Below the pieces are notes generated by a model. It ran no database searches. It was not told the DNA's origin and saw nothing but the letters and a program-made list of their open reading frames with translations. The position numbers and the translations under genes are program-made. Of a stretch of 32,993 nucleotides of DNA, positions 1 through 32,693 are shown one piece after another (positions within the stretch are counted from its first letter, which is position 1; every line of letters starts with the position of its first letter). Origin of the DNA: a virus (lineage: Duplodnaviria > Heunggongvirae > Uroviricota > Caudoviricetes); the IMG/VR virus record IMGVR_UViG_2585427793_000011. The stretch is one strand, 5' to 3'.

Positions 1-996
1 TTATGGACGCATTATGGACATTCCTGACACCGGGTTAAGAGTCACAGCATCTTGTAAGAAATCCGGTGCAAAGTGTGCGTAGGTCATAGTTTGCTGAATG
101 TTAGAATGACCCAGGATGCGCTGCAATGTGATTATGTTACCTCCATTCATTATAAAATGTGTGGCAAATGTATGCCTCAAAACATGTACTGCTTGTCCGT
201 CAGGTAAATCGGGTTTTACTTCCCTGAGAGCGTTACGCACTTTGTAGTAACTGGCATTAAAAAGCCTGCCTGAATTTTTGGTCTTGATCCGTTTAATCAG
301 GTCCTGCGAAACGGGAATTGTCCTGCGTTTTCCGTTTTTAGTTTTCATAAACGTAACCATCTGGTTAATGATGTGTTCAGCTTTTAAATTAGACACTTCA
401 CTCCAGCGTCCACCAGTAGAAAGGCAGACCAGAGTTGCATTTAATTCATCACCATCAAGCATGGATAACAGCCGCGTAATCTCTTCACTGGACAAAAAAG
501 CCATTTCCGTAACAGCTTCACGTAACCGTTTAATCTCACGGAACGGGTTGTGAGAGTGGTATTCACCGGCGTCAATTAACTTGGTGAACATCCCGCTCAT
601 TATTGCCAGATGTCGATTTACGCTGGCTGGTTTCAGACCATCGTTCATCATTACAACGCGATAATCAGTTATCGTTTTCTTTGTTAGCTGGTCAGCTCTG
701 GACACTCCCATTTCTGCAAATTTGGCGATTATTGTCGTTAAACGCCCCCGTTCAATATCTCCACGCTCATGTGATTTTCCGTGATATATCCACCATCTGC
801 CTAACAACTCTGTAAGAGTTCGGCGGTCGGCTGGTTTCTCCAACCACTCTTTGTTGTGGTAGTTAACCAGTACATGACGTTCGAATGCTTGAGCTTCACC
901 TTTAGTTTTAAATTTCCGCCTGATACGTTTTCCATCTGCACCCTGCGGTCTGACGTCCACTTCATAACGACCATCATCGAGCTTTTTAATAGACAT
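1..996 (-). CDS. int: Tyrosine-type site-specific integrase
   Basis: 331-aa ORF at prophage left end next to the repressor; C-terminal VLRHTFATH...LGH...TMTYAH box typical of tyrosine recombinases. Confidence 0.9.
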   Translation of the reverse strand: MSIKKLDDGRYEVDVRPQGADGKRIRRKFKTKGEAQAFERHVLVNYHNKEWLEKPADRRTLTELLGRWWIYHGKSHERGDIERGRLTTIIAKFAEMGVSRADQLTKKTITDYRVVMMNDGLKPASVNRHLAIMSGMFTKLIDAGEYHSHNPFREIKRLREAVTEMAFLSSEEITRLLSMLDGDELNATLVCLSTGGRWSEVSNLKAEHIINQMVTFMKTKNGKRRTIPVSQDLIKRIKTKNSGRLFNASYYKVRNALREVKPDLPDGQAVHVLRHTFATHFIMNGGNIITLQRILGHSNIQQTMTYAHFAPDFLQDAVTLNPVSGMSIMRP

Positions 997-2035: not shown

Positions 2036-2532
2036 CAGTGATGACGCTCAATCTCGTTGAAAAACAGCCAGCAGCTATGCGCCGGATAATTGGTAAGCAT
2101 CTTGCCGTCCCTCGCTGGCAGGAGACATGCGATTATTATAATCAGATGATGGAACGCGAACGGCTAACGGTTTGCTTCCATGCGCAGTTAAAACAGCGTC
2201 ATGCAACGATGCGTTTTGAAGAAATGAATGATGTCGAACGTGAACGACTGGTATGTGCAATTGATGAATTGCGTGGGGCATTCTCAAAACGCCGTCAGGT
2301 TGGCGCAAGTGAGTATGCATATATTAGTTTTTTAACAGTCAGTCAGCGTCGTACTTTATTTATGCATGCCGGATTGACTGAAAAAGAATTCAACCAGCCA
2401 TACTGGCGAATTAATGAAGAATCATGTTACTGGCGTGATGCTTTATTCCGTGCATTACGTGAATTATTCAGCCTGTTTGAGTATGCACCGACAATTCTGA
2501 CGTCGGTAAAACCAGAGCAATATCTGCATTAA
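2032..2532 (+). CDS. B: P2 B-like replication protein (putative helicase loader)
   Basis: 166-aa ORF at the position and with the length of P2 gpB; assignment by synteny and length only. Confidence 0.55.
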   Translation: MTVMTLNLVEKQPAAMRRIIGKHLAVPRWQETCDYYNQMMERERLTVCFHAQLKQRHATMRFEEMNDVERERLVCAIDELRGAFSKRRQVGASEYAYISFLTVSQRRTLFMHAGLTEKEFNQPYWRINEESCYWRDALFRALRELFSLFEYAPTILTSVKPEQYLH

Positions 2533-2595
2533 GTAATTAACCAGAGTTTTTAACGCACTTAATTGTGCGGGGCTTCTTTTTGCCTGGAGAAAGTC

Positions 2596-2820
2596 ATGCA
2601 TACAGTTTCTGAAAATCAGTGCGGTAAATACGCATTACTGCTGCAACAGGCCAGAACCGAAGCACAGGCCGACGCAGCGACGCGCTTTTCTTCTCATCTT
2701 GACGCCATGATTCGCCACATCACAAAGGCGGAGTTATCCCGCGTGGAGATAGTCGAGCTGCTCAGTCAGGAGTCGGAAAAATTTCACAATATCGGATTGT
2801 CTCGCGGGGAGGTGCTTTGA
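2596..2820 (+). CDS. Hypothetical early protein (P2 orf80 position)
   Basis: ORF with ATG at 2596 preceded by GGAGAAA; in the early operon between B and A. Confidence 0.5.
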
Positions 2821-3122
2821 TGTCCTGTTCTCGTTCAGTTGTATTACTGAATAACGCCTTAAAAATCGCCGTTATGAAAAATGGCGATTTATCTCTTATT
2901 CAACTTGGTCTTGATAAAGAAAAACGCGAAATAACTGAGTCTGTTATCGCGATTTATCAGAACGAATTAAATCTCCTGTCTGATGTGGTCAATTTACTTG
3001 TTAAACGCGCTGTATTTCACAAGCAAATCTCCTCCGTGGATGAACTGACGAAATTAACGACAGAAATTGCCAGCTATTGCGCTGATGAATTTAAAAAACT
3101 TAACGACAAAAGGAGCTGGTAA
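2817..3122 (+). CDS. Hypothetical early protein (P2 orf81 position)
   Basis: 101-aa ORF, ATGA overlap with upstream gene, same strand as the early operon. Confidence 0.5.
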
Positions 3123-3346
3123 TGCCGGACAACGTAGATTTTATTCAGGAACAACAGGCTGAATTACTGGAGCGCCAGATTAACGCGGCAAGGGTAAAGC
3201 ATTGCGGTGTTTCTGCGCTGGTTTGCGAAGAGTGTGACGCGCCAATACCTGCTGCCCGTCGTGCGGCTTATCCGTCAGCCACGCGTTGTGTTTCCTGCCA
3301 GTCAGTCTTTGAAGCAAAAAACAAACATTACCGGAGAACGTCATGA
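3122..3346 (+). CDS. TraR/DksA-family C4 zinc-finger protein (P2 orf82 position)
   Basis: 74-aa ORF with C-x2-C-x17-C-x2-C (CEECDAPIP...CVSC) typical of TraR/DksA-like zinc fingers. Confidence 0.7.
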   Translation: MPDNVDFIQEQQAELLERQINAARVKHCGVSALVCEECDAPIPAARRAAYPSATRCVSCQSVFEAKNKHYRRTS

Positions 3347-3618
3347 GTATTCGTATTGAAATTGGCGAACGTTATGTCGTTACCAGTGACAGCTTTCAGT
3401 TTATTCTCCACGAGAAAAAGAGAGCTGAAAGCGGTAAAAACGCCGGTCAGGAATGGCTGGCGGTGGTTGGTTATTACCCGAAATTAAGCCAGCTTGTTTC
3501 CGGCCTGATGCATCACGATATTCTGACCGGAAGCGCAAAGTCTTTTGCTGATTTAAACGCGCAGGTTGAGCAACTCAGCAAGCGTTGTTCAGAGGCTTTT
3601 GGCTCATATGGCCGTTAA
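3343..3618 (+). CDS. Hypothetical early protein (P2 orf83 position)
   Basis: 91-aa ORF immediately upstream of A, overlapping its start. Confidence 0.5.
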   Translation: MSIRIEIGERYVVTSDSFQFILHEKKRAESGKNAGQEWLAVVGYYPKLSQLVSGLMHHDILTGSAKSFADLNAQVEQLSKRCSEAFGSYGR

Positions 3619-5887
3619 AGCCTCCGGGCGTTTTGTCCCTCCGTCAGCATTTGCCGCAGGCACCGGTGAGACGTTTACCGGTGCTTATGCATGGAACGCG
3701 CCACGCGAGGCCGTCGGGCGCGAAAGACCCCTTACACGTGACGAGATGCGTCAGGTGCAAGGTGTTTTATCCACGATTAATCGCCTGCCTTACTTTTTGC
3801 GCTCGCTGTTTACTTCACGCTATGACTACATCCGGCGCAATAAAAGCCCGGTGCACGGGTTTTATTTCCTCACATCCACTTTTCAGCGCCGTTTATGGCC
3901 GCGTATTGAGCGCGTGAATCAGCGCCATGAAATGAACACCGACGCGTCGTTGCTGTTTCTGGCAGAGCGTGACCATTATGCGCGTCTGCCGGGGATGAAT
4001 GACAAGGAGCTGAAAAAGTTTGCCGCCCGTATCTCATCGCAGCTTTTCATGATGTATGAGGAACTCTGCGATGCATGGGTTGATGCACATGGCGAGAAAG
4101 AATCGCTGTTTACAGATGAGGCGCAGGCACATCTGTATGGTCATGTTGCTGGCGCTGCACGTGCTTTCAATATTTCCCCTCTCTACTGGAAAAAATACCG
4201 TAAAGGACAGATGACCACGAGGCAGGCATATTCTGCCATTGCCCGTCTGTTTAACGATGAGTGGTGGACTCATCAGCTTAAAGGCCAGCGTATGCGCTGG
4301 CATGAGGCGTTACTGATTGCTGTCGGGGAGGTCAATAAAGACCGTTCTCCTTATGCCAGTAAACATGCCATTCGTGATGTGCGTGCACGCCGCCAGGCAA
4401 ATCTGGAATTTCTTAAATCGTGTGACCTCGAAAACAGGGAAACCGGCGAGCGCATCGACCTTATCAGTAAGGTGATGGGCAGTATTTCTAATCCTGAAAT
4501 TCGCCGGATGGAGCTGATGAACACCATCGCCGGTATTGAGCGTTACGCCGCCGCAGAGGGTGATGTGGGGATGTTTATCACTCTGACCGCGCCGTCAAAG
4601 TATCACCCGACACGTCAGGTCGGAAAAGGCGAAAGTAAAACCGTCCAGCTAAATCACGGCTGGAATGATGAGGCATTTAATCCAAAGGATGCGCAGCGTT
4701 ATCTCTGCCGCATCTGGAGCCTGATGCGCACGGCATTCAAGGATAATGATTTACAGGTCTACGGTTTGCGAGTCGTCGAGCCACACCACGACGGAACGCC
4801 GCACTGGCATATGATGCTTTTTTGTAATCCACGCCAGCGTAACCAGATTATTGAAATCATGCGTCGTTATGCGCTCAAAGAGGATGGCGACGAAAGAGGA
4901 GCCGCGCGAAACCGTTTTCAGGCAAAACACCTTAACCGGGGCGGTGCTGCGGGATATATCGCGAAATACATCTCAAAAAATATCGACGGCTATGCACTGG
5001 ATGGTCAGCTCGATAACGATACCGGCAGACCGCTGAAAGACACTGCTGCGGCTGTTACCGCATGGGCGTCAACGTGGCGTATCCCGCAATTTAAAACGGT
5101 TGGCCTGCCGACAATGGGGGCTTACCGTGAACTACGCAAACTGCCTCGCGGCGTCAGCATTGCTGATGAGTTTGACGAACGCGTCGAGGCTGCACGCGCC
5201 GCCGCAGACAGTGGTGATTTTGCGTTGTATATCAGCGCGCAGGGTGGGGCAAATGTCCCGCGCGATTGTCAGACTGTCAGGGTTGCCCGTAGCCCGTCGG
5301 ATGACGTTAACGAGTACGAGGAAGAAGTCGAGAGAGTGGTCGGCATTTACGCACCGCATCTCGGCGCGCGTCATATTCATATCACCAGAACCACGGACTG
5401 GCGCATTGTGCCGAAAGTGCCGGTCGTTGAGCCTTTGACTTTAAAAAGCGGCATCGCCGCGCCTCGGAGTCCTGTCAATAACTGTAGAAAGCTCTCCGGT
5501 GGTGATACTTCGTTACCGGCTCCCACACCTTCTGAGCACGCCGCAGCAGTGCTTAATCTGGTTGATGACGGTGTTATCGAATGGAATGACCCGGAGGTCG
5601 TGAGGGCGCTCAGGGGTGCATTAAAACACGGACTGAGAAGACCAAACCGCCAGCAAAGAAACGGAAGCCCGTTAAAACCGCATGAAATAGCGCCATCGGC
5701 CAGACTGACCCGGTCGGAACGAATGCAAATTACCCGTATCCGCGTTGACCTTGCTCAGAACGGTATCAGGCCGCAGCGATGGGAGCTTGAGGCGCTGGCG
5801 CGTGGCGCGACCGTAAATTATGACGGGAAAAAATTCGCTTATCCGGTCGCTGATGGATGGCCAGGGTTCACAACTGTAATAGATTGA
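3608..5887 (+). CDS. A: Replication initiation endonuclease A (rolling-circle, HUH-type)
   Basis: About 760 aa from ATG at 3608 (ORF track starts at TTG 3566); contains HWHMMLF (H-hydrophobic-H) motif; size and position as P2 gpA. Confidence 0.85.
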   Translation: MAVKASGRFVPPSAFAAGTGETFTGAYAWNAPREAVGRERPLTRDEMRQVQGVLSTINRLPYFLRSLFTSRYDYIRRNKSPVHGFYFLTSTFQRRLWPRIERVNQRHEMNTDASLLFLAERDHYARLPGMNDKELKKFAARISSQLFMMYEELCDAWVDAHGEKESLFTDEAQAHLYGHVAGAARAFNISPLYWKKYRKGQMTTRQAYSAIARLFNDEWWTHQLKGQRMRWHEALLIAVGEVNKDRSPYASKHAIRDVRARRQANLEFLKSCDLENRETGERIDLISKVMGSISNPEIRRMELMNTIAGIERYAAAEGDVGMFITLTAPSKYHPTRQVGKGESKTVQLNHGWNDEAFNPKDAQRYLCRIWSLMRTAFKDNDLQVYGLRVVEPHHDGTPHWHMMLFCNPRQRNQIIEIMRRYALKEDGDERGAARNRFQAKHLNRGGAAGYIAKYISKNIDGYALDGQLDNDTGRPLKDTAAAVTAWASTWRIPQFKTVGLPTMGAYRELRKLPRGVSIADEFDERVEAARAAADSGDFALYISAQGGANVPRDCQTVRVARSPSDDVNEYEEEVERVVGIYAPHLGARHIHITRTTDWRIVPKVPVVEPLTLKSGIAAPRSPVNNCRKLSGGDTSLPAPTPSEHAAAVLNLVDDGVIEWNDPEVVRALRGALKHGLRRPNRQQRNGSPLKPHEIAPSARLTRSERMQITRIRVDLAQNGIRPQRWELEALARGATVNYDGKKFAYPVADGWPGFTTVID

Positions 5888-5993
5888 AATAGTGTGAATA
5901 TCTAAGAGATAAAACTATATAAGGTGTGTATTAATACTGTGCTGGAGGAAAAGGTGAAAACCAGATGGCATGGCTACAATAATAAAACGATAA

Positions 5994-6020
5994 GCCTCAT
6001 TTTTAATGAGGCCGTTTTTA
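5994..6020. terminator. Bidirectional intrinsic terminator between A and the cargo operon
   Basis: Hairpin GCCTCAT-TTTTA-ATGAGGC followed by CGTTTTTATT and preceded by an A-rich run; lies between convergent gene ends (A stop 5887, cargo gene stop 6053). Confidence 0.55.
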
Positions 6021-6052
6021 TTACATCAAAAGAATTGAATTGTATTGTTAAC

Positions 6053-6724
6053 TTAAAGGGCAAACCTTTCTATGGTTCGATACACCTTGTCAAAAATTTG
6101 CTCTGAAAGTGAAATGGACCCATTTGTGTTAATTTCTAATGACTCATAACCGGTAACGTCCTTAACATTAAGTTTAACTTTATCAATTGTAAAATTTGCA
6201 TTTTTGAAAATGTTTCTTATTTCCATAAGTGCGTCACTTGATGACTCAAGTTCCAGTATGCCGGATGTGTGTTTGCTAAACGTTAAGTCTTTTAATTTTG
6301 CCTTGTGCACTTGTATTTTTTCAAAGTGCGGGGTCAGGAAATAAATGAAGTCCTCAATTTTGATGTTGAGATTTGACACATTAAAATCAGAATGTGTTGA
6401 TTTAATTATGTTTGATATGAAGTTCTTAATGCTTCTGGGAGGCGACTCAATGATTAAGATGAAGTTTTTACCTTTTGTTGTGTAAAGCCAAAAGTTAAAT
6501 TGAATATATTTTAGCTGTGTATATTGAGTCTCGTTTCCATATGGATCAACGATTATCTCGTTGACCTCTACTTTCTCGATGTATCGAGATGATATTGCAT
6601 TTTCTTCATATGAGTTGATACTAAATCCCCAGCCTTTATCACTATCAAAAGGAGTGTTAATGATAGACTGATATAAACTATCAAGTCCAGCAGGGAAGTT
6701 GGCAGTAAACCATTTTGTTTTCAT
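6053..6724 (-). CDS. Hypothetical protein, third gene of AT-rich cargo operon
   Basis: 223-aa ORF with AAGGAG Shine-Dalgarno 7 nt upstream of ATG; low GC; no family recognised. Confidence 0.7.
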   Translation of the reverse strand: MKTKWFTANFPAGLDSLYQSIINTPFDSDKGWGFSINSYEENAISSRYIEKVEVNEIIVDPYGNETQYTQLKYIQFNFWLYTTKGKNFILIIESPPRSIKNFISNIIKSTHSDFNVSNLNIKIEDFIYFLTPHFEKIQVHKAKLKDLTFSKHTSGILELESSSDALMEIRNIFKNANFTIDKVKLNVKDVTGYESLEINTNGSISLSEQIFDKVYRTIERFAL

Positions 6725-6735
6725 AACAACTCCTT

Positions 6736-7848
6736 TTATTTATCAGTAACAACCTCAATTGTGTTGGAGGCGATAATACTGTTTGAAATTTCGCGAGCGG
6801 TTTTTTCAAGTGCTAATAATAGCAGTTTTTCCTTCTCTTTATCTACATTTTGACGATTTGCATATTCGTTTATATTTTTGTACTTATAAACACCGCGAAC
6901 GATATACGAGAATAACTTGCAATTATCTGGGTCGACAAATTGAGCCTCGAATTCATATTTGTCCGAGTCTTTATAAGTGTCAACAACAGAACTCCAAATG
7001 ATTTTGGTAATATAAAATCCTTTTCCTAACAACTCCTTAAACTCGAGAGAGTCAAGAACGCTGCGCCCTTTTAGTGAAGCTTTGGAGATATGATATCCTG
7101 TGTCAATAATTGTATCGTCATCATCAGAATCATCTTCATTTTCGTTAGACTTATTTGACTCAAGAATTGGATGCGTAACGTATACATCCGATACGTCAAT
7201 GCATTTGTAGTTAGGTATGCTTGAGATTAGTTGCTCAAAAAATTTGCTTCTTTCCGCTGGTGATTTAACAGTTTCGAGCGAAATCTCATCAAGACTGGCT
7301 GGATCCTCATTGTTGTCTTCTTTGATCTTCTCCACGAGGCGCTCGTTGAATTCCCTTGCTTTAGCATTTTGAGGGAAACGGGTGATAAATTCACCGCTTT
7401 CATTCATTTCAACTTGTATTTTGGCTTCACGTGATGAGGATTGGCGAAACTCGCTCATTTTGAAATCTAGTTTCACATATTTTATTGATACTTCAAAACC
7501 ATTCTCGGTGTAATTTATATTAGTTATATCGCCTTCTTTTTGAAGATCTTCACAAATAGATTTAATAGTATTTTCCATACTATTTTTATCTATATTTGTA
7601 TTAATAATGTTAATTGATACTTTTTCTCTCCGCCCAACAGAACCGAGTATGTTTGAAAGAAATTCAAAATCAGAATAGCCATGATAGTATCTGGAAAAAT
7701 CCAAAGCCAATGTTTTTCGTTTAGTCTCTTTGGATATAATCATTCCTCTTTTAAAAAAGAGACTTTTCATATCTTCATGAGTGACTTTAGTTTGATTCAA
7801 TGCGTCAAACATTGCCTTATCATTTACACTATATAATCCAATTTTCAT
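6736..7848 (-). CDS. Hypothetical acidic protein, second gene of AT-rich cargo operon
   Basis: 370 aa from ATG at 7848, which forms an ATGA overlap with the upstream gene stop (ORF track extends to TTG 7863); GGGAG upstream; contains NENEDDSDDDD acidic tract. Confidence 0.7.
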   Translation of the reverse strand: MKIGLYSVNDKAMFDALNQTKVTHEDMKSLFFKRGMIISKETKRKTLALDFSRYYHGYSDFEFLSNILGSVGRREKVSINIINTNIDKNSMENTIKSICEDLQKEGDITNINYTENGFEVSIKYVKLDFKMSEFRQSSSREAKIQVEMNESGEFITRFPQNAKAREFNERLVEKIKEDNNEDPASLDEISLETVKSPAERSKFFEQLISSIPNYKCIDVSDVYVTHPILESNKSNENEDDSDDDDTIIDTGYHISKASLKGRSVLDSLEFKELLGKGFYITKIIWSSVVDTYKDSDKYEFEAQFVDPDNCKLFSYIVRGVYKYKNINEYANRQNVDKEKEKLLLLALEKTAREISNSIIASNTIEVVTDK

Positions 7849-8909
7849 GCCTGTCGCTCCCAACCAATCTCTACCGAACTAAAACGAGGCTTTGTAAATT
7901 CTACCTGTTGAAAATCAATAGCATCTATTATCGTTTTTTTATGTTCATCGAAACCCCATTCTTGACAATAACTATCCTTTGCACGCATAAAAATACTGCG
8001 AACATCTTTATGTATGTTAGGGTTAACTATTCTAATTCTTATATTTTCATTGCCATCCAGTAATTGATATTTAGATAGTGTGTCCAGAATGTAAATAAAC
8101 TCTAGCTCGTTTTTTCCTTCGCCATTGTAATAAATAATGTAACCATGTTTAAATGTGGTTTCCCATTGTGATGTTTCTTCATTGCAATGTCTGACGTCAT
8201 TATGTTTTATAATAAGGAATGGGCCTGTCAATAATTCTACAGTTGCTGGAAGTTCTTCGGGCGAACCGCTTACTTTATGTAGTGAAAGGTCTGGGTAAAA
8301 GAATTGATATTTTTTACCGAGTGGAAACTCTCTTTTGTGGCTTAGTTGTGATAAATCGCAGATTATTGACTGCAGGTAGTTTATAGTTCTTGGTTCAATA
8401 ATGTGTATTTTTTGACCGGCCCTTACCGGTATATTGTCAAGATTGATACCTCTTTTCTTCTTATCAGTTTCAGTATTGTGAGACTGATAGAATACATCAT
8501 AAAAAGATTGGTCAAAGTCTCCGTCATGGTTGTATACAAAGAGCATGCCTCTGACTTCTGACGCACCACTTTTATAAGAATAACGCTCCTTCCATTCTTT
8601 ACAACCTTGAGCACAGTCAATAGAATTAGCCAGCGATACTAAAGCATTGCGCATTTTAGTTGCTGTAATTGAGCCTTTAATATAGCTTTTTAAATCAGTA
8701 TTTAAAAAAATGGTTCTATTCAAATAGGGATCTTTATAAGAAAATACAACATCAGTTGGATGTGTTCCGGCTAGTGTTTTATGTTGATCTTTTTTCATGC
8801 ATGGAAAGTTTTCATTGGTTGGACCAACGAGTTCCCACTTAAACCATTTGAATAGGTCTGAAGATATTTTTTCTGCCATTGCTGAAATATTTTGAGTTTC
8901 ACCTGACAT
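7845..8909 (-). CDS. Hypothetical protein, first gene of AT-rich cargo operon
   Basis: 354-aa ORF, AGGT 9 nt upstream of ATG, AT-rich promoter-like region upstream; no family recognised with confidence. Confidence 0.7.
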   Translation of the reverse strand: MSGETQNISAMAEKISSDLFKWFKWELVGPTNENFPCMKKDQHKTLAGTHPTDVVFSYKDPYLNRTIFLNTDLKSYIKGSITATKMRNALVSLANSIDCAQGCKEWKERYSYKSGASEVRGMLFVYNHDGDFDQSFYDVFYQSHNTETDKKKRGINLDNIPVRAGQKIHIIEPRTINYLQSIICDLSQLSHKREFPLGKKYQFFYPDLSLHKVSGSPEELPATVELLTGPFLIIKHNDVRHCNEETSQWETTFKHGYIIYYNGEGKNELEFIYILDTLSKYQLLDGNENIRIRIVNPNIHKDVRSIFMRAKDSYCQEWGFDEHKKTIIDAIDFQQVEFTKPRFSSVEIGWERQA

Positions 8910-9147
8910 GATAATTACCTATATATATTTTGTATAAATCCCTATGAGCCATAACTCTTATGAACCACATGTAACAACGTGGGGCATATTATGGCTAATC
9001 GATCTGTACCATAATTTCATCATTCTTGCATCATCTTGAATGAATTCGCATGCTTACGCCATATCCATATCAAAACATCAATGTCAACAATGGCGCGGAT
9101 TCGGCTAAATCATGCAACTGCATTAAAATCGCCCCATGAAGCGGGCG

Positions 9148-9166
9148 GGCGAGGCGGGGAAAGCAC
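9148..9166. other. cos site (cohesive-end sequence)
   Basis: GGCGAGGCGGGGAAAGCAC, matching my recollection of the P2 19-nt cohesive end, in the expected position upstream of Q. Confidence 0.7.
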
Positions 9167-9335: not shown

Positions 9336-10370
9336 TCAGCCGTTGTCAGTGTCCAGTGAGTAGTTTTTAAAGCGGATGACCTCCTGACCGAGCCAGCCGT
9401 TTATTTCCCGAATCCTGTCCTGTAACGGGATAAGCTCATTGCGGACAAAGACCTTTGCCACTTTCTCAATATCACCCAGCGACCCGACGTTCTCCGGCTT
9501 GCCGCCCATCAACTGAAAGGGGATGCGGTGCGCGTCCAGCAGGTCTGCGGCACTGGCTTTTTTGATATTAAAAAAATCGTCCTTCGTCGCCACTTCACTG
9601 AGCGGGATAATTTTAATGCCGTCAGCTTTCCCCTGCGGGGCATAGAGAAACAGGTTTTTAAAGTTGTTGCGGCCTTTCGACTTGACCATGTTTTCGCGGA
9701 GCATTTCGATATCGTTGCGATCCTGCACGGCATCGGTGACGTACATGATGTATCCGGCATGTGCGCCGTTTTCGTAATACTTGCGGCGGAACAGCGTGGC
9801 CGACTCATTCAGCCAGGCAGAGTTAAGGGCGCTGAGATATTCCGGCAGGCCGTACAGTTCCTGATTAATATCCGGCTCCAGCAGATGAAACACGGAGCCG
9901 GGCGCGAAAGGTGTCGGCTCGTTGAAGGACGGCACCCACCAGTAAACATCCTCCTCCACGCCACGGCGGGGATATTTTGCCGGTGAGGTTTCCAGTCTGA
10001 TGACCTTACCGGTGGTGCTGTAACGCTTTTCCAGAAACGCATTACCGAAAACCAGAAAATCCAGCACAAAGCGGCTGAAATCCTGCTGGGAAAGCCACGG
10101 ATGCGGGATAAATGTCGAGGCCAGAATATTACGTTTGACGTAAATCGGTGAGCTGTGATGCACGGCAGCACGCAGGCTTTTTGCCAGACCGGTAAAGCTG
10201 ACCGGCGGCTCATACCATCTGCCGTTACTGATGCACTCGACGTAATCCAGAATGTCACGGCGGTCGAGTACCGGCACCGGCTCACCAAAGGTGAATGCCT
10301 CCATTTTCGGGGCGCTGGCGGTCATTTTTTTTGCCGCAGGTTGCGGTGTTTTCCCTTTTTTCTTGCTCAT
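9336..10370 (-). CDS. Q: Portal (capsid) protein
   Basis: 344 aa, same length and position as P2 gpQ; one-nucleotide stop/start overlap with P. Confidence 0.9.
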   Translation of the reverse strand: MSKKKGKTPQPAAKKMTASAPKMEAFTFGEPVPVLDRRDILDYVECISNGRWYEPPVSFTGLAKSLRAAVHHSSPIYVKRNILASTFIPHPWLSQQDFSRFVLDFLVFGNAFLEKRYSTTGKVIRLETSPAKYPRRGVEEDVYWWVPSFNEPTPFAPGSVFHLLEPDINQELYGLPEYLSALNSAWLNESATLFRRKYYENGAHAGYIMYVTDAVQDRNDIEMLRENMVKSKGRNNFKNLFLYAPQGKADGIKIIPLSEVATKDDFFNIKKASAADLLDAHRIPFQLMGGKPENVGSLGDIEKVAKVFVRNELIPLQDRIREINGWLGQEVIRFKNYSLDTDNG

Positions 10371-18587: not shown

Positions 18588-19373
18588 TTATGAGTGATTT
18601 TTATTTGATGCTTTGTATTCTACAACCTTCTTATTGGCGTAAAGGAATTTTGTATATGACAGGAATATAACCAGACCTGAAATGAAATAGATGAGGGATA
18701 TTATTAATAATGCTTTTTTTTGGCTGTTATTATCTTTAATCTCCTGACTTAACCATTCGGAGTCCTCCTCGTTTAGCTGTAAGAGCTTATTGCAGGCGAT
18801 CTCAGGAAGTGTGTCTTTTATAAATACGTTTCGTAGCCTCTTGCAATCGGCAAGGCTATAAGTTTTATTGAATTCAACTGTTTTATTGTTGAAGGATAAA
18901 AGAACTTTGTCACTATAAACATAGTACATCATATTTTTATATGGTATGCCTATGGCATCTCTTACTATAGCGGATTGTTTGTTGTGTATATAACATGCGA
19001 GGAGAATGTAAAAAATACTGGCCAGAATTACAATTATTGTTTTAATTATGTGTGGTGGTTTTGTTATGTCACCCCAGATGCGAGTAAGGAAAAAATACGA
19101 TGTTTTTAGTTTTCCATCAATCAGTCCCTGCTGTATCATTCTCACATTTTCAATGCCTGATACATTGATTCCGTTAATTATTTTAAATAGTTGAATGTCG
19201 CGCCACTCGCGGTCAAGTCTTTTTAATTTTTTGTCTGAATATCCAAAATTGAAATAATGTGCAATAAGCCTCATAAGGTTACTTTTACCAAAGCTAAAAA
19301 ATGCTAATACTGCAAAGCTACAAAGGAAAAAAACGATTAGCCCCCACACATTAGTCACATTATAGCTGACCAT
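18588..19373 (-). CDS. Hypothetical membrane protein (P2 orf30 position cargo gene)
   Basis: 261-aa AT-rich ORF, AAGGAG upstream of ATG; three hydrophobic segments (N-terminal, central, C-terminal) consistent with TM helices. Confidence 0.7.
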   Translation of the reverse strand: MVSYNVTNVWGLIVFFLCSFAVLAFFSFGKSNLMRLIAHYFNFGYSDKKLKRLDREWRDIQLFKIINGINVSGIENVRMIQQGLIDGKLKTSYFFLTRIWGDITKPPHIIKTIIVILASIFYILLACYIHNKQSAIVRDAIGIPYKNMMYYVYSDKVLLSFNNKTVEFNKTYSLADCKRLRNVFIKDTLPEIACNKLLQLNEEDSEWLSQEIKDNNSQKKALLIISLIYFISGLVIFLSYTKFLYANKKVVEYKASNKNHS

Positions 19374-24989: not shown

Positions 24990-26072
24990 CTAATTATTTT
25001 GGCAAGTGCTGTCAGCGAGCAGAGAAAAATCACTATTTTCAATTGCGTTCACAAGTTTTGCAATATCATGATTTTTTTCATAAAAGATATATAACGCCGC
25101 ATACAGATTCATTTCGGGTTCAATCTTTGGAAATGACACGCTGATCATACGTTCATTTTTGATATATGCATCATCACCCTTATAGTACATTCCAACATAA
25201 TTGTCCCATCGTTCAATAAGACTCATCTCGAACAAATCATCAAGGTCTTTTGAAAAAGATTGATAGTTTGTATCGTCAATCATTAGTGGCCCGAAAAGTT
25301 GCTTTTCAGGAAACTCGATTTTCGTGCTTGTACTCTTCGGTATATTTATCTCACTGATAATTTTGCTTAAAAGATTTCTAGCAGATAAAGTGCATTGACG
25401 CAGTCTATTTTTAAAAAGTTCTAGAAATTCATATACGATCTGCTCACCTTCGTCAACATCATCAAACCATTCATTAGTATGAATTAACGCGTTGAAAAGA
25501 CTCAAGTCAAAGGGGATCGGCTTGTTTTTTGATACACAATACCCCTGATTGAAAGCAACGTCCCCAGGAGAGAAATAATCCGAGTATTCTTTCCGGGCAA
25601 GGGTCAAAAAATCACGCTGAAATTCTAAAGTTTGTCCCATTACCTTTTCGACTAGGTCGTACAATGTGAAATATTTGCACTGAAAATCGTCAGGGTGTTC
25701 ACGTACGTTATCAGGTAGGCGTTCAGCCGTGAGGACGAAAAACCAAATCTCGTCAAACTTACCCTTTAACTTCTCATTGTTTCGAAGTTTGTCTAATGTT
25801 TTCTGATACTTAACCTTTCTTGCAGTGGCAGTCATTTGCAAACCTAAGCGCTTTCCCGGTTGCACATAGTCGAGACCAGGGTAGTTTTGGGATATCCTAT
25901 TCATATCCTCAAACTGCTCTCCCCAGGCATGATTGATTAGAGGCAATAGCGAACTCTCTTGGGCTGTAGAAAGATCATTTAAATTGCTGCTGGTTTGCAT
26001 CTTGATTTGAGTAGCAAGTTTCGTTGCAAAGCTAGTTAATTCTTCCCTGTTTTTCATTTGCTCTGGTTTCAA
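24990..26072 (-). CDS. Hypothetical protein (Z/fun-locus cargo gene, candidate defence/abortive-infection protein)
   Basis: 355-360-aa AT-rich ORF counter-oriented to the flanking tail genes; start either TTG at 26072 (GGAG upstream) or ATG at 26057. Confidence 0.7.
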   Translation of the reverse strand: MKPEQMKNREELTSFATKLATQIKMQTSSNLNDLSTAQESSLLPLINHAWGEQFEDMNRISQNYPGLDYVQPGKRLGLQMTATARKVKYQKTLDKLRNNEKLKGKFDEIWFFVLTAERLPDNVREHPDDFQCKYFTLYDLVEKVMGQTLEFQRDFLTLARKEYSDYFSPGDVAFNQGYCVSKNKPIPFDLSLFNALIHTNEWFDDVDEGEQIVYEFLELFKNRLRQCTLSARNLLSKIISEINIPKSTSTKIEFPEKQLFGPLMIDDTNYQSFSKDLDDLFEMSLIERWDNYVGMYYKGDDAYIKNERMISVSFPKIEPEMNLYAALYIFYEKNHDIAKLVNAIENSDFSLLADSTCQNN

Positions 26073-28596: not shown

Positions 28597-31036
28597 CAAT
28601 GTAAAATTACAGGTATTGCTCAGGGCTGTTGACCAGGCATCCCGCCCGTTTAAATCCATCCGCACAGCGAGCAAATCGCTGTCGGGGGATATCCGGGAAA
28701 CACAAAAATCACTGCGCGAGCTGAACGGTCAGGCATCCCGTATTGAGGGATTTCGCAAGACCAGTGCACAGCTCGCCGTGACTGGTCATGCACTTGAAAA
28801 GGCTCGGCAGGAAGCCGAAGCCCTTGCCACACAGTTTAAAAACACCGAACGTCCGACCCGTGCTCAGGCGAAAGTGCTGGAATCCGCAAAGCGTGCGGCG
28901 GAGGACTTACAGGCGAAATATAACCGCCTGACGGATTCCGTTAAACGCCAGCAACGGGAACTGGCCGCTGTGGGAATTAATACCCGCAATCTTGCACATG
29001 ATGAGCAGGGACTGAAAAACCGTATCAGTGAAACCACCGCACAGCTTAACCGTCAGCGCGACGCGCTGGCGCGTGTCAGTGCGCAACAGGCAAAACTTAA
29101 CGCAGTCAAACAGCGTTATCAGGCAGGCAAGGAACTGGCCGGAAATATGGCCTCGGTGGGCGCTGCCGGTGTGGGGATTGCGGCGGCGGGAACGATGGCC
29201 GGAGTTAAGCTGCTGATGCCCGGTTATGAGTTTGCGCAGAAAAACTCAGAATTGCAGGCCGTGCTCGGTGTGGCAAAAGATTCCGCCGAAATGGCCGCGC
29301 TACGCAAACAGGCGCGCCAGCTCGGCGACAATACCGCCGCCTCGGCGGATGATGCGGCCGGTGCGCAGATTATTATTGCGAAAGCCGGTGGGGATGTTGA
29401 TGCCATTCAGGCGGCAACGCCGGTCACGCTGAACATGGCGCTGGCGAACCGCCGCACGATGGAAGAAAACGCCGCCCTGCTGATGGGGATGAAATCCGCC
29501 TTTCAGCTTTCAAACGATAAGGTCGCTCATATCGGGGATGTTCTCTCCATGACGATGAACAAAACCGCCGCCGATTTTGACGGCATGAGCGATGCGCTGA
29601 CCTATGCCGCACCTGTGGCAAAAAATGCCGGTGTCAGCATTGAAGAAACCGCCGCAATGGTCGGGGCGCTGCATGATGCAAAAATCACAGGCTCAATGGC
29701 GGGGACGGGAAGCCGTGCCGTGTTAAGCCGCCTGCAGGCACCGACGGGAAAAGCATGGGATGCACTCAAAGAGCTTGGAGTGAAAACCTCAGACAGCAAG
29801 GGAAACACCCGGCCAATATTTACCATTCTGAAAGAAATGCAGGCCAGTTTTGAGAAAAACCGGCTCGGTACTGCCCAGCAGGCTGAATACATGAAAACTA
29901 TTTTCGGGGAGGAGGCCAGCTCAGCCGCCGCCGTGCTGATGACTGCCGCCTCAACCGGAAAGCTGGACAAACTGACCGCTGCGTTTAAAGCCTCAGACGG
30001 GAAGACCGCCGAGCTGGTAAATATCATGCAGGACAACCTAGGCGGTGACTTTAAGGAGTTTCAGTCCGCTTATGAGGCGGTGGGGACTGACCTGTTTGAC
30101 CAGCAGGAAGGCGCACTGCGTAAGCTCACGCAGACGGCCACAAAGTATGTGTTAAAACTCGACGGCTGGATACAGAAAAACAAATCACTGGCGTCAACCA
30201 TCGGCATCATTGTCGGTGGTGCACTGGCGCTGACTGGTGTCATCGGTGCCATTGGCCTCATAGCCTGGCCGGTTATCACCGGCATCAATGCCATCATCGC
30301 GGCAGCAGGCGCAATGGGGGCAATCTTCACGACGGTTGGCAGTGCTGTTATGACCGCCATCGGGGCGATTAGCTGGCCGGTTGTGGCCGTGGTGGCCGCC
30401 ATTGTCGCCGGGGCGTTGCTTATCCGTAAATACTGGGAGCCTGTCAGCGCATTCTTTGGCGGTGTGGTGGAAGGGCTGAAAGCGGCATTTGCGCCGGTGG
30501 GGGAACTGTTCACGCCACTGAAACCGGTGTTTGACTGGCTGGGCGAAAAGTTACAGGCCGCGTGGCAGTGGTTTACAAACCTGATTGCTCCGGTTAAAGC
30601 CACCCAGGACACCCTGAACCGTTGCCGTGACACGGGCGTCATGTTCGGGCAGGCACTGGCTGACGCGCTGATGCTGCCGCTTAATGCGTTCAACAAACTG
30701 CGCAGCGGTATTGACTGGGTACTGGAAAAACTCGGTGTTATCAACAAAGAGTCAGACACACTTGACCAGACCGCCGCCAGAACTCATGCCGCCACGTATG
30801 GCACCGGTGGTTATATTCCGGCGACCAGCTCTTATGCAGGCTATCAGGCTTATCAGCCGGTCACGGCACCGGCTGGCCGCTCTTATGTGGACCAGAGTAA
30901 AAACGAATATCACATCAGCCTGACGGGTGGTACTGCGCCGGGGACACAGCTCGACCGCCAGTTACAGGATGCGCTCGAAAAATACGAGCGGGATAAACGT
31001 GCGCGCGCCCGTGCCAGCATGATGCATGACGGTTAA
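28589..31036 (+). CDS. T: Tail tape measure protein
   Basis: 815 aa, P2 gpT length; coiled-coil-rich N-terminus and glycine/alanine-rich hydrophobic central segment. Confidence 0.9.
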   Translation: MSNNVKLQVLLRAVDQASRPFKSIRTASKSLSGDIRETQKSLRELNGQASRIEGFRKTSAQLAVTGHALEKARQEAEALATQFKNTERPTRAQAKVLESAKRAAEDLQAKYNRLTDSVKRQQRELAAVGINTRNLAHDEQGLKNRISETTAQLNRQRDALARVSAQQAKLNAVKQRYQAGKELAGNMASVGAAGVGIAAAGTMAGVKLLMPGYEFAQKNSELQAVLGVAKDSAEMAALRKQARQLGDNTAASADDAAGAQIIIAKAGGDVDAIQAATPVTLNMALANRRTMEENAALLMGMKSAFQLSNDKVAHIGDVLSMTMNKTAADFDGMSDALTYAAPVAKNAGVSIEETAAMVGALHDAKITGSMAGTGSRAVLSRLQAPTGKAWDALKELGVKTSDSKGNTRPIFTILKEMQASFEKNRLGTAQQAEYMKTIFGEEASSAAAVLMTAASTGKLDKLTAAFKASDGKTAELVNIMQDNLGGDFKEFQSAYEAVGTDLFDQQEGALRKLTQTATKYVLKLDGWIQKNKSLASTIGIIVGGALALTGVIGAIGLIAWPVITGINAIIAAAGAMGAIFTTVGSAVMTAIGAISWPVVAVVAAIVAGALLIRKYWEPVSAFFGGVVEGLKAAFAPVGELFTPLKPVFDWLGEKLQAAWQWFTNLIAPVKATQDTLNRCRDTGVMFGQALADALMLPLNAFNKLRSGIDWVLEKLGVINKESDTLDQTAARTHAATYGTGGYIPATSSYAGYQAYQPVTAPAGRSYVDQSKNEYHISLTGGTAPGTQLDRQLQDALEKYERDKRARARASMMHDG

Positions 31037-31050
31037 GGAGGTGACGAAAA

Positions 31051-31530
31051 ATGATGCTCGCGTTAGGTATGTTTGTTTTTATGCGCCAGACGCTGCCACA
31101 CCAGACCATGCAGCGTGAATCAGATTATCGCTGGCCGTCAAATTCCCGTATCGGTAAACGGGATGCCTTTCAGTTTCTCGGTGTTGGCGAGGAAAACATC
31201 ACGCTTGCCGGTGTGCTTTATCCCGAGCTGACCGGCGGAAAGCTGACGATGACTACGCTCAGGCTGATGGCAGAGGAAGGCCGGGCGTGGCCGTTGCTGG
31301 ATGGCACCGGCATGATTTACGGCATGTATGTCATCAGCAGGGTGAGTGAAACAGGGAGTATTTTCTTTGCAGACGGCACCCCCCGAAAAATTGATTTTAC
31401 GCTGTCGCTCACCCGCGTTGATGAATCACTGGCTGCGCTTTATGGCGATATCGGTAAACAGGCGGAATCGCTCATCGGTAAGGCTGGCAGTATGGCGACT
31501 AAATTCACGGGTATGACGGGGGCGGGATAA
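31051..31530 (+). CDS. U: Tail protein U
   Basis: 159 aa, P2 gpU length and position. Confidence 0.85.
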   Translation: MMLALGMFVFMRQTLPHQTMQRESDYRWPSNSRIGKRDAFQFLGVGEENITLAGVLYPELTGGKLTMTTLRLMAEEGRAWPLLDGTGMIYGMYVISRVSETGSIFFADGTPRKIDFTLSLTRVDESLAALYGDIGKQAESLIGKAGSMATKFTGMTGAG

Positions 31531-32693
31531 TGCTGGATGCGCTGACATTTGATGCAGGCAGTACGCTGACGCCGGATTACATGCTGATGCTCGACAGCAG
31601 GGATATTACCGGCAATATCAGCGACCGTCTGATGAGCATGACTCTGACGGATAACCGGGGCTTTGAGGCTGACCAGCTTGATATTGAACTGAACGATGTC
31701 GACGGGCAGGTCGAACTGCCGGTTCGTGGCGCTGTCCTGACGGTGTATATCGGCTGGAAAGGGTTTGCCCTGGTATGCAAAGGGAAATTCACCGTTGATG
31801 AGGTAGAACACCGGGGCGCGCCGGATGTGGTCACCATCCGGGCCCGGAGTGCAGATTTTCGTGGCACGCTCAATTCCCGCCGTGAAGGCTCCTGGCATGA
31901 CACCACGCTCGGTGCGATTGTTGAGGCGATAGCCTCCCGTAACAGGCTGGAAGCCAGTGTCGCTCCGTCACTGGCCGGAATTAAAATCCCGCACATCGAC
32001 CAGTCGCAGGAGTCTGATGCGAAATTCCTGACCCGTCTTGCTGAACGCAACGGCAGTGAGGTGTCGGTAAAAATGGGAAAACTGCTGTTTCTCAAAGCGG
32101 GGCAGGGGGTGACGGCCAGCGGTAAAAAAATCCCGCAGATTACCATCACCCGCAGCGACGGCGACCGTCATCATTTTGCGATTGCTGACCGTGGAGCCTA
32201 TACCGGCGTAACGGCAAAGTGGTTACACACCAAAGACCCGAAGCCGCAAAAGCAGAAGGTAAAACTGAAACGCAAAAAGAAAGAAAAACACCTGCGCGCA
32301 CTGGAGCACCCGAAAGCGAAACCGGTCAGGCAGAAGAAAGCGCCAAAAGTACCGGAAGCGCGCGAAGGTGAATATATGGCCGGTGAGGCTGACAATGTTT
32401 TTGCCCTGACCACGGTATATGCCACGAAAGCGCAGGCTATGCGCGCCGCTCAGGCGAAGTGGGATAAACTGCAACGGGGCGTTGCGGAGTTCTCCATCAG
32501 CCTGGCTACCGGTCGGGCAGATATTTACACGGAAACACCGGTTAAAGTGTCAGGCTTTAAGCGCGTCATAGACGAGCAGGACTGGACAATCACTAAGGTG
32601 ACACATTTTCTGAATAATAGCGGCTTCACGACGTGCCTGGAGCTTGAGGTCAGGCTTTCTGATGTGGAGTACGAAACAGAAGATGATGAGTGA
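31530..32693 (+). CDS. D: Tail protein D (late gene)
   Basis: 387 aa, P2 gpD length; last gene of the tail operon, one-nucleotide overlap with the U stop. Confidence 0.85.
   Translation: MLDALTFDAGSTLTPDYMLMLDSRDITGNISDRLMSMTLTDNRGFEADQLDIELNDVDGQVELPVRGAVLTVYIGWKGFALVCKGKFTVDEVEHRGAPDVVTIRARSADFRGTLNSRREGSWHDTTLGAIVEAIASRNRLEASVAPSLAGIKIPHIDQSQESDAKFLTRLAERNGSEVSVKMGKLLFLKAGQGVTASGKKIPQITITRSDGDRHHFAIADRGAYTGVTAKWLHTKDPKPQKQKVKLKRKKKEKHLRALEHPKAKPVRQKKAPKVPEAREGEYMAGEADNVFALTTVYATKAQAMRAAQAKWDKLQRGVAEFSISLATGRADIYTETPVKVSGFKRVIDEQDWTITKVTHFLNNSGFTTCLELEVRLSDVEYETEDDE

Follow-up and report, generated by a model that had tools for sequence, protein, structure and literature searches.

The cassette analysed here lies in the virus record IMGVR_UViG_2585427793_000011, a stretch of 32,993 nucleotides (referred to as a whole as the window) that represents a complete P2-like (Peduovirus) prophage. 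It occupies the A-cos (tin/old) hotspot of P2 and consists of three genes that we call Hp1, Hp2 and Hp3, after the PADLOC models that match them. Comparison of the proteins with published ones gives good support to the view that the cassette is a member of the 3HP anti-phage system, carried by the prophage as swappable tin/old cargo; as a system it is, judged by its sequence, already known and not new. The features concerned are the following:

5888..9109: the variable cassette in its full extent, located at the A-cos (tin/old) hotspot of P2, with a guanine-plus-cytosine (GC) content of 0.342 versus 0.524 in the rest of the window; limits taken from the breakpoints against near-identical phages.
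7845..8909, minus strand: Hp1, 354 amino acids (aa), 41 kDa, putative PD-(D/E)xK nuclease subunit related to GAPS4a.
6736..7848, minus strand: Hp2, 370 aa, 43 kDa, predicted to consist of an N-terminal helical domain and, after it, an alpha+beta body like that of RdgC/CHL4.
6053..6724, minus strand: Hp3, 223 aa, 26 kDa, compact, predicted RdgC/IML3/CENP-L fold.

An earlier reading of the window from its DNA letters (the original prediction) had described three co-directional open reading frames (ORFs) of 354, 370 and 223 aa between A and cos, and this arrangement is borne out by the minus-strand coordinates of all three genes and by the 19-nucleotide cohesive-end sequence of P2 cos, ggcgaggcggggaaagcac, at 9148-9166. 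The reverse complement of ggcgaggcggggaaagcac also occurs in the P2 fragment cloned by Rousset et al. and given in their Table S2A. The stop codon of Hp1 and the start codon of Hp2 share four nucleotides (ATGA), an overlap that suggests translational coupling of the two genes, and Hp2 is separated from Hp3 by 11 nucleotides. The length of 370 aa for Hp2 is counted from the ATG that is also the choice of RefSeq; a TTG further upstream would give 375 aa. Hp3 is the fastest-evolving subunit of the trio.

The assignment to 3HP is carried by full-length matches to the PADLOC models for Hp1 (PDLC03004, 1.7e-63, residues 1-350 of the 354-aa protein), Hp2 (PDLC03005, 3.6e-37, residues 5-364 of 370) and Hp3 (PDLC03006, 6e-8, residues 2-201 of 223), found in adjacent, co-directional genes with the gene order kept. 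The three proteins are also homologous, end to end, to those encoded by pFR109, the "hp + hp + hp" system of E. coli E1114 that was cloned from the P2 hotspot and protects against phage P1 (Rousset et al., 2022, PMC9122126), with 36% identity for Hp1 (BLASTP 2e-67), 31% for Hp2 (2e-39) and 19% for Hp3 (1e-10). The statement in the original prediction that this hotspot is known to carry systems built solely from uncharacterised proteins is correct, the "hp + hp + hp" system being one. The two trios have in common the A-cos position, the order of the genes, full-length homology, the PADLOC matches and their sizes (333/359/227 aa in pFR109 compared to 354/370/223 aa in the window). They differ in sequence to the extent given by these identities, and in that the variant of the window is catalogued in Table S5A, whereas the resistance assay was performed on the pFR109 homolog. 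The proteins of the window are 100% identical to RefSeq WP_024160514, WP_001398851 and WP_032238998, the trio listed in that table as a P2-encoded locus (PMC9122126). Together, these comparisons support an anti-phage role for the window's variant, and the expectation that this variable tin/old locus would carry anti-phage cargo agrees with the protection against P1 conferred by a homolog from the same hotspot.

The original prediction had gone further and proposed a candidate novel defence system, with strong homology of the proteins to a characterised system as the finding that would speak against it; such homology is what the PADLOC and pFR109 BLASTP matches provide. In favour of a previously undescribed system are the lack of Pfam or NCBIfam library matches for the trio and of any relative with a solved structure. 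A copy of Pfam-A that did not contain PF26115 and PF26110, together with NCBIfam, returned only sub-threshold noise (LigA, TonB_2, MutS_IV, GcvR), in keeping with the earlier observation that the three proteins are without classical Pfam domains; single-sequence and profile searches of PDB sequences with the cassette proteins returned nothing, and the strong matches in PHROGs were all to families of unknown function. On the other side stand PADLOC models for all three proteins, a validated homolog and the presence of identical proteins in a published catalogue. The undescribed-system reading is refuted by the PADLOC matches, the listing in Table S5A and the BLASTP homology to pFR109, and we give it almost no weight. 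RNA-family and repeat scans of the cassette found no Rfam family and no meaningful repeats, and a retron-like or RNA component is therefore excluded.

The trio is widespread and its organisation constant. A scan with one genome per species yielded 80 loci in Gamma-, Beta- and Alphaproteobacteria, Desulfobacterota, Verrucomicrobia, Acidobacteria, Armatimonadetes, Zixibacteria and a cyanobacterium, and in all 72 of the 72 loci with enough downstream sequence Hp1 is followed directly by Hp2 and then Hp3. Genes for a P2-like portal or A protein lie near only about four of the 80 loci, and the same order is found on plasmids of Citrobacter and Vibrio, as well as in one conjugative element from Vibrio. 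The invariant order, together with the copies on plasmids and in the conjugative element, thus marks the trio as an obligate, mobile three-gene unit; added to the overlap of start and stop codons, this makes it appear that all three genes are needed. The conjugative element is that of V. parahaemolyticus JANFRQ010000099.1, in which the 3HP trio (354/357/226 aa) is flanked on one side by an Endonuclease_1 gene and the recombination genes RecT/SSB/YqaJ and on the other by TraN/TraU. The Hp2 family comprises 651 representative clusters at 50% identity (the 150 matches listed are all strong). Within E. coli, the variant of the window is present at DNA identities of at least 99% in 9 of 5,426 complete genomes, with a 76% variant in one. 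The contigs of Salmonella and E. coli that carry the Hp3 sequence of the window number well over a thousand. 3HP is reported to be abundant in Salmonella Typhi and Paratyphi A; the system is now a routine annotation in genome surveys (PMC10855318 among them), and a 2024 survey places it under "unknown" mechanism (PMC10855318).

The boundaries of the cassette and its surroundings in the prophage are defined by these further features:

1..996, minus strand: integrase.
3566..5887, plus strand: replication endonuclease A, 773 aa, upstream neighbour of the cassette.
5993..6013, both strands: putative bidirectional intrinsic-terminator hairpin between the stop codons of gene A and Hp3, from a terminator scan and direct reading.
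8910..9109, minus strand: AT-rich upstream spacer, presumed promoter region, from promoter scans.
10370..9336, minus strand: portal Q, followed by terminase P, also on the minus strand.

The left arm of the prophage shares 97-98% identity with several phages, among them Yersinia phage vB_YpM_46 and Peduovirus P24A7b; the match to these phages ends at about 5880, and likeness to P2-like phages restarts at 9110. Comparison of the A-to-cos interval, as advised in the original prediction, showed that vB_YpM_46 (NC_055845.1), 97.7% identical to the window through gene A, has unrelated genes there. Its A-cos locus (30468..32141) encodes a DUF3850 protein, a small ORF and a 313-aa hypothetical protein on the minus strand. 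At the level of sequence, this difference in content shows cassette exchange between near-identical phages, and the breaks in similarity at about 5880 and 9110, together with the unrelated genes of vB_YpM_46, therefore identify a cleanly swapped hotspot cassette. Its low GC content, earlier judged by eye, was computed as 34.2% for 5888-9109 compared to 52.4% for the remaining window, and its transcription is indeed opposite to that of A, which is on the plus strand. The predicted terminator boundary was also recovered: the hairpin at 5993-6013 reads GCCTCATT-TTT-AATGAGGC, with T-runs and scan matches on both strands, and is plausibly a bidirectional terminator. The promoter that the operon had been credited with found less support. 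The spacer at 8910-9109 contains a perfect -35 element (TTGACA) at 9087..9082 on the minus strand, but the consensus scan detected no good -10 element or convincing sigma-70 promoter in it, and its sole match overlaps the start codon.

The prophage has other genes at variable positions. The second variable locus of P2, at the Z/fun position between G (tail-fibre assembly) and FI (sheath), is occupied by a 360-aa ORF (24990..26072, minus strand). Its product carries a SMEK domain at the N-terminus (PF21941, 1.6e-19) and resembles the N-terminal part of the PADLOC Argonaute-associated model Aga_REase-PNTD1-PNTD2 (4e-18); this is probably a second defence-type cargo gene of the prophage. At the P2 orf30 position, a 261-aa ORF (18588..19373, minus strand) is reversed relative to the surrounding tail genes; Pfam and PADLOC searches with it found nothing.

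The clue to how 3HP might work comes from Hp1, named PD-(D/E)XK nuclease domain protein in RefSeq. We retrieved 339 homologs, all of about 350 aa, and the matches listed carry the precomputed Pfam annotation PF26115 (PDDEXK_GAPS4). With the GAPS4 sequences taken from the supplementary files of the GAPS4 preprint, a hidden Markov model (HMM) built from 121 sequences of the Hp1 family scored GAPS4a at 25-28 bits (P of about 5e-11 to 5e-10), and a reverse phmmer search with GAPS4a matched only members of the Hp1 family among 482 fetched proteins, with values down to 1e-11. The MAFFT alignment of Hp1 and GAPS4a is collinear over about 230 residues and places C37, H43, H50-P-x-D53, C99, N127..D129 and E225 of Hp1 opposite C36, H41, H46-G-x-D49, C97, N127..D129 and E204 of GAPS4a. 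Across the Hp1 family, E4, D53, D72 and K74 never vary, and we propose, from this conservation, that E4, H50-P-x-D53 and D72-L-K74 make up a canonical E...D...DxK catalytic core. GAPS4 is a two-gene system of Vibrio and E. coli, and the nuclease motif of its GAPS4a subunit, HGxD-SxK, is divergent and includes an indispensable Asp (Mahata et al., bioRxiv 10.1101/2023.03.28.534373, 10.1101/2025.09.07.674715): its replacement by Ala abolishes defence, as D59A in the Vibrio system and at the same conserved Asp in RiKo (Mahata et al.). The corresponding D49 of GAPS4a aligns with D53 of Hp1. We read D72-x-K74 as the counterpart of GAPS4a S69-x-K71, a pairing of our own, as MAFFT sets the two motifs two residues out of register. 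The C37/H43/C99 triad, invariant across the Hp1 family and kept in GAPS4a, may be a structural metal site; it is not discussed in the accessible parts of the GAPS4 papers. Hp1 is thus homologous to GAPS4a, and we infer that it is a PD-(D/E)xK DNase.

Hp2 and Hp3 were approached through AlphaFold2 models, with predicted local distance difference test (pLDDT) scores of 88.2 and 91.7, respectively. Both are predicted to have the DNA-gripping fold of RdgC, IML3-CHL4 and RexA, which were defined as a set sharing one DNA-binding fold in the RexA structure paper; RdgC adopts it as a homodimeric ring, and IML3-CHL4 as a heterodimer of one small and one large subunit in contact with DNA (PMC11077077). 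Neither protein matched the RdgC family or any other in Pfam, profile searches of PDB sequences with them were empty, and a Foldseek search of the PDB with Hp2 gave low template-modelling (TM) scores, with RdgC absent from the top 50. A disordered loop of Hp2 (residues ~228-250; 7099..7167 of the window) is variable in sequence and conserved in acidity, its net charge being -5 or lower in 83 of 104 homologs; it might serve as a mimic of DNA or in autoinhibition. Alignment of Hp2 with Hp3 by hhalign recovered only an 11-column K-A-x-L-K motif, which was non-significant, and paralogy of the two proteins is therefore not established by sequence. The motif K-A-(S/K)-L-K-(G/D) is found at residues 252-262 of Hp2 and 137-147 of Hp3, at a beta-strand in both models, and this, together with the common fold, hints at ancient paralogs.

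A connection between Hp2 and GAPS4b, the ring-forming partner of GAPS4a, emerged at the level of profiles. Comparison of Hp2 with a single GAPS4b sequence found nothing. A profile of four GAPS4b sequences, which included GAPS4-RiKo and two divergent relatives from IMG/VR contigs, aligned to the Hp2 alignment by hhalign over 288 collinear columns from end to end (P = 0.006, probability 6%), and family-invariant motifs of Hp2 (RG-I/F, R..FF..L, DVSDVYV.P, LKG, YEF and P..C..F) match similar motifs of GAPS4b. Run against the 482 fetched proteins, the GAPS4b HMM gave 27 matches of 8 bits or more, every one in the Hp2 family (best 14.8 bits, E 2.4e-4), compared to none in 2,410 reversed or shuffled decoys. 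These results constitute weak but specific evidence that Hp2 may be a remote relative of GAPS4b. The search of Hp3 with GAPS4b gave nothing credible, its one 11-bit match being non-collinear.

GAPS4 is triggered by DNA breaks, and attempts to obtain escape phages gave none; it degrades incoming lambda DNA and host DNA, and infection at high multiplicity lowers cell viability (Mahata et al., bioRxiv 10.1101/2023.03.28.534373, 10.1101/2025.09.07.674715). Within the assignment of the cassette to 3HP, we propose with moderate confidence that 3HP is related to GAPS4 but built of three subunits, with the nuclease Hp1 licensed by a DNA-sensing clamp of Hp2 and Hp3. Hp2 and Hp3 would pair in the manner of CHL4-IML3 into a ring or horseshoe, in place of the homodimeric ring of GAPS4b, and this sensor would detect free DNA ends, breaks or other abnormal DNA arising in infection. 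Engagement of DNA would release or position the effector, the putative PD-(D/E)xK DNase Hp1, for DNA degradation, upon which either the infected cell would be killed (abortive, as with GAPS4) or the incoming genome destroyed. More speculatively, the acidic loop of Hp2 would act as a brake, a DNA-mimicking autoinhibitor that stays in place until displaced by real DNA.

A number of observations weigh against this proposal. The tested homolog, pFR109, is only 19-36% identical to the proteins of the window and conferred resistance to one of eight phages. Hp1 has D-x-K at the position of S-x-K in GAPS4a, and its C-terminal third is different. The Hp2 HMM scores GAPS4b at 0.4 bits, and the hhalign probability for this pair is just the 6% given above. 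Hp2 and Hp3 probably pair, but the pairing, like any ring, is drawn by analogy only. Lastly, GAPS4 works with two genes, which leaves Hp3 without an explained role.

A rather unlikely variant is direct, non-abortive defence, in which the Hp2/Hp3 clamp would load only on the free ends of injected linear DNA and Hp1 would degrade this DNA, with the circular chromosome spared. The simplest way to load such a ring is to thread it onto a free end, and P1 injects linear DNA that needs to be circularised, both of which count in its favour. In the same direction point the central pore through which RdgC-type rings are thought to thread DNA (PMC11077077), the protection of the validated homolog against P1 (PMC9122126) and the degradation of incoming lambda DNA by GAPS4. 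The homologous GAPS4, however, also degrades host DNA, with its cost in viability at high multiplicity of infection, and no discrimination between self and non-self is visible in the sequences. The narrow range of the validated homolog (P1 only) would also fit a specific protein trigger, as expected if Hp1 were a toxin restrained by Hp2 and/or Hp3 in toxin-antitoxin fashion and freed by a particular phage protein instead of DNA. Many hotspot systems, PARIS among them, sense phage proteins (PMC9122126), and the acidic loop of Hp2 could mask the nuclease. We nevertheless consider a toxin-antitoxin-like arrangement improbable: GAPS4 gave no escape phages and responds to DNA breaks, and the predicted fold of Hp2 and Hp3 is a DNA-binding one, not antitoxin-like.

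Nor does a role outside defence, in which the trio would be an accessory of the prophage and alter host recombination or replication restart to the advantage of the phage, through RdgC-like inhibition of RecA and a nuclease, account well for the data. RdgC does inhibit RecA functions and RexA influences the lysis-lysogeny switch of lambda (PMC11077077), and RecT/SSB/YqaJ genes are neighbours of the trio in one Vibrio element. Against this, the pFR109 trio alone gave phage resistance in E. coli (PMC9122126), and the genes are found in a known defence hotspot, on plasmids and in a conjugative element, with P2-like genes at only about four of 80 loci, which makes such a role very improbable. The DNA-triggered, GAPS4-like nuclease is our preferred account of 3HP.

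On the more tentative view that 3HP and GAPS4 belong to one nuclease family, with the Hp2-Hp3 clamp in place of the GAPS4b ring, phage exclusion would become a third time the task of an RdgC fold, after RexA, and an orphan system would gain a testable mechanism, that of a DNA-triggered DNase that sensitises its host to DNA-damaging agents. Phage proteins that mask DNA ends, such as homing endonucleases, might then allow evasion of 3HP, and should the link to GAPS4 hold, DNA-damaging antibiotics and toxins would be expected to affect carriers of 3HP more strongly, as already shown for GAPS4. The value of these observations is as a lead on how the widespread 3HP works, and little as a discovery; the hypothesis that links 3HP, GAPS4 and the RdgC fold is the only part with some novelty. 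This link did not turn up in the literature searched: 3HP is absent from the GAPS4 papers, and our literature search found no paper on its mechanism.

GAPS4 is among the known systems closest to 3HP. The two have in common PF26115, the aligned catalytic Asp and Lys, Cys/His triad and N/D motif of Hp1 and GAPS4a, and carriage in hotspots of P2-like prophages; Hp2 and GAPS4b, which are of similar size, may be related, on weak but specific evidence. They differ in having three genes in 3HP and two (or a fusion) in GAPS4, which has no counterpart of Hp3, and in the motif HPxD...DxK of Hp1 compared to HGxD...SxK; Hp1 is also about 45 aa longer, with another C-terminus. The GAPS4-RiKo pair, on which experiments have been done, is present in three IMG/VR viral contigs of 32-41 kb; in the one examined (IMGVR_UViG_2579779007_000009, 2085..4158) it lies between G and FI, the other P2 hotspot, and is followed directly by the sheath gene FI, with no third gene. 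RiKo at G-FI and 3HP at A-cos are thus related systems in two different hotspots of one phage family. With its invariable Hp3, the cassette does not have the two-gene architecture of GAPS4, and given the three genes, the variant motif and the uncertain relationship to GAPS4b, it is not a GAPS4 member, but probably works like one. To RdgC, RexA and IML3-CHL4 (CENP-L/N), Hp2 and Hp3 are alike in predicted fold only; there is no sequence similarity, and Hp2 adds its N-terminal helical domain and acidic loop. Shedu and Hachiman, whose PD-(D/E)xK effectors are switched on by DNA ends or aberrant DNA and with which the GAPS4 authors drew a comparison (Mahata et al.), resemble 3HP in the proposed logic of a PD-(D/E)xK nuclease licensed by the sensing of DNA ends or damage; their sensor modules are unrelated, and the likeness is one of logic, with no homology claimed. 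It is a tentative but, in our opinion, quite conceivable extension of this comparison that a single widespread family of defence nucleases, sensors of DNA ends or breaks, has split into 3HP and GAPS4, with a heteromeric Hp2-Hp3 clamp of the CHL4-IML3 type in the former replacing the homodimeric GAPS4b ring of the latter.

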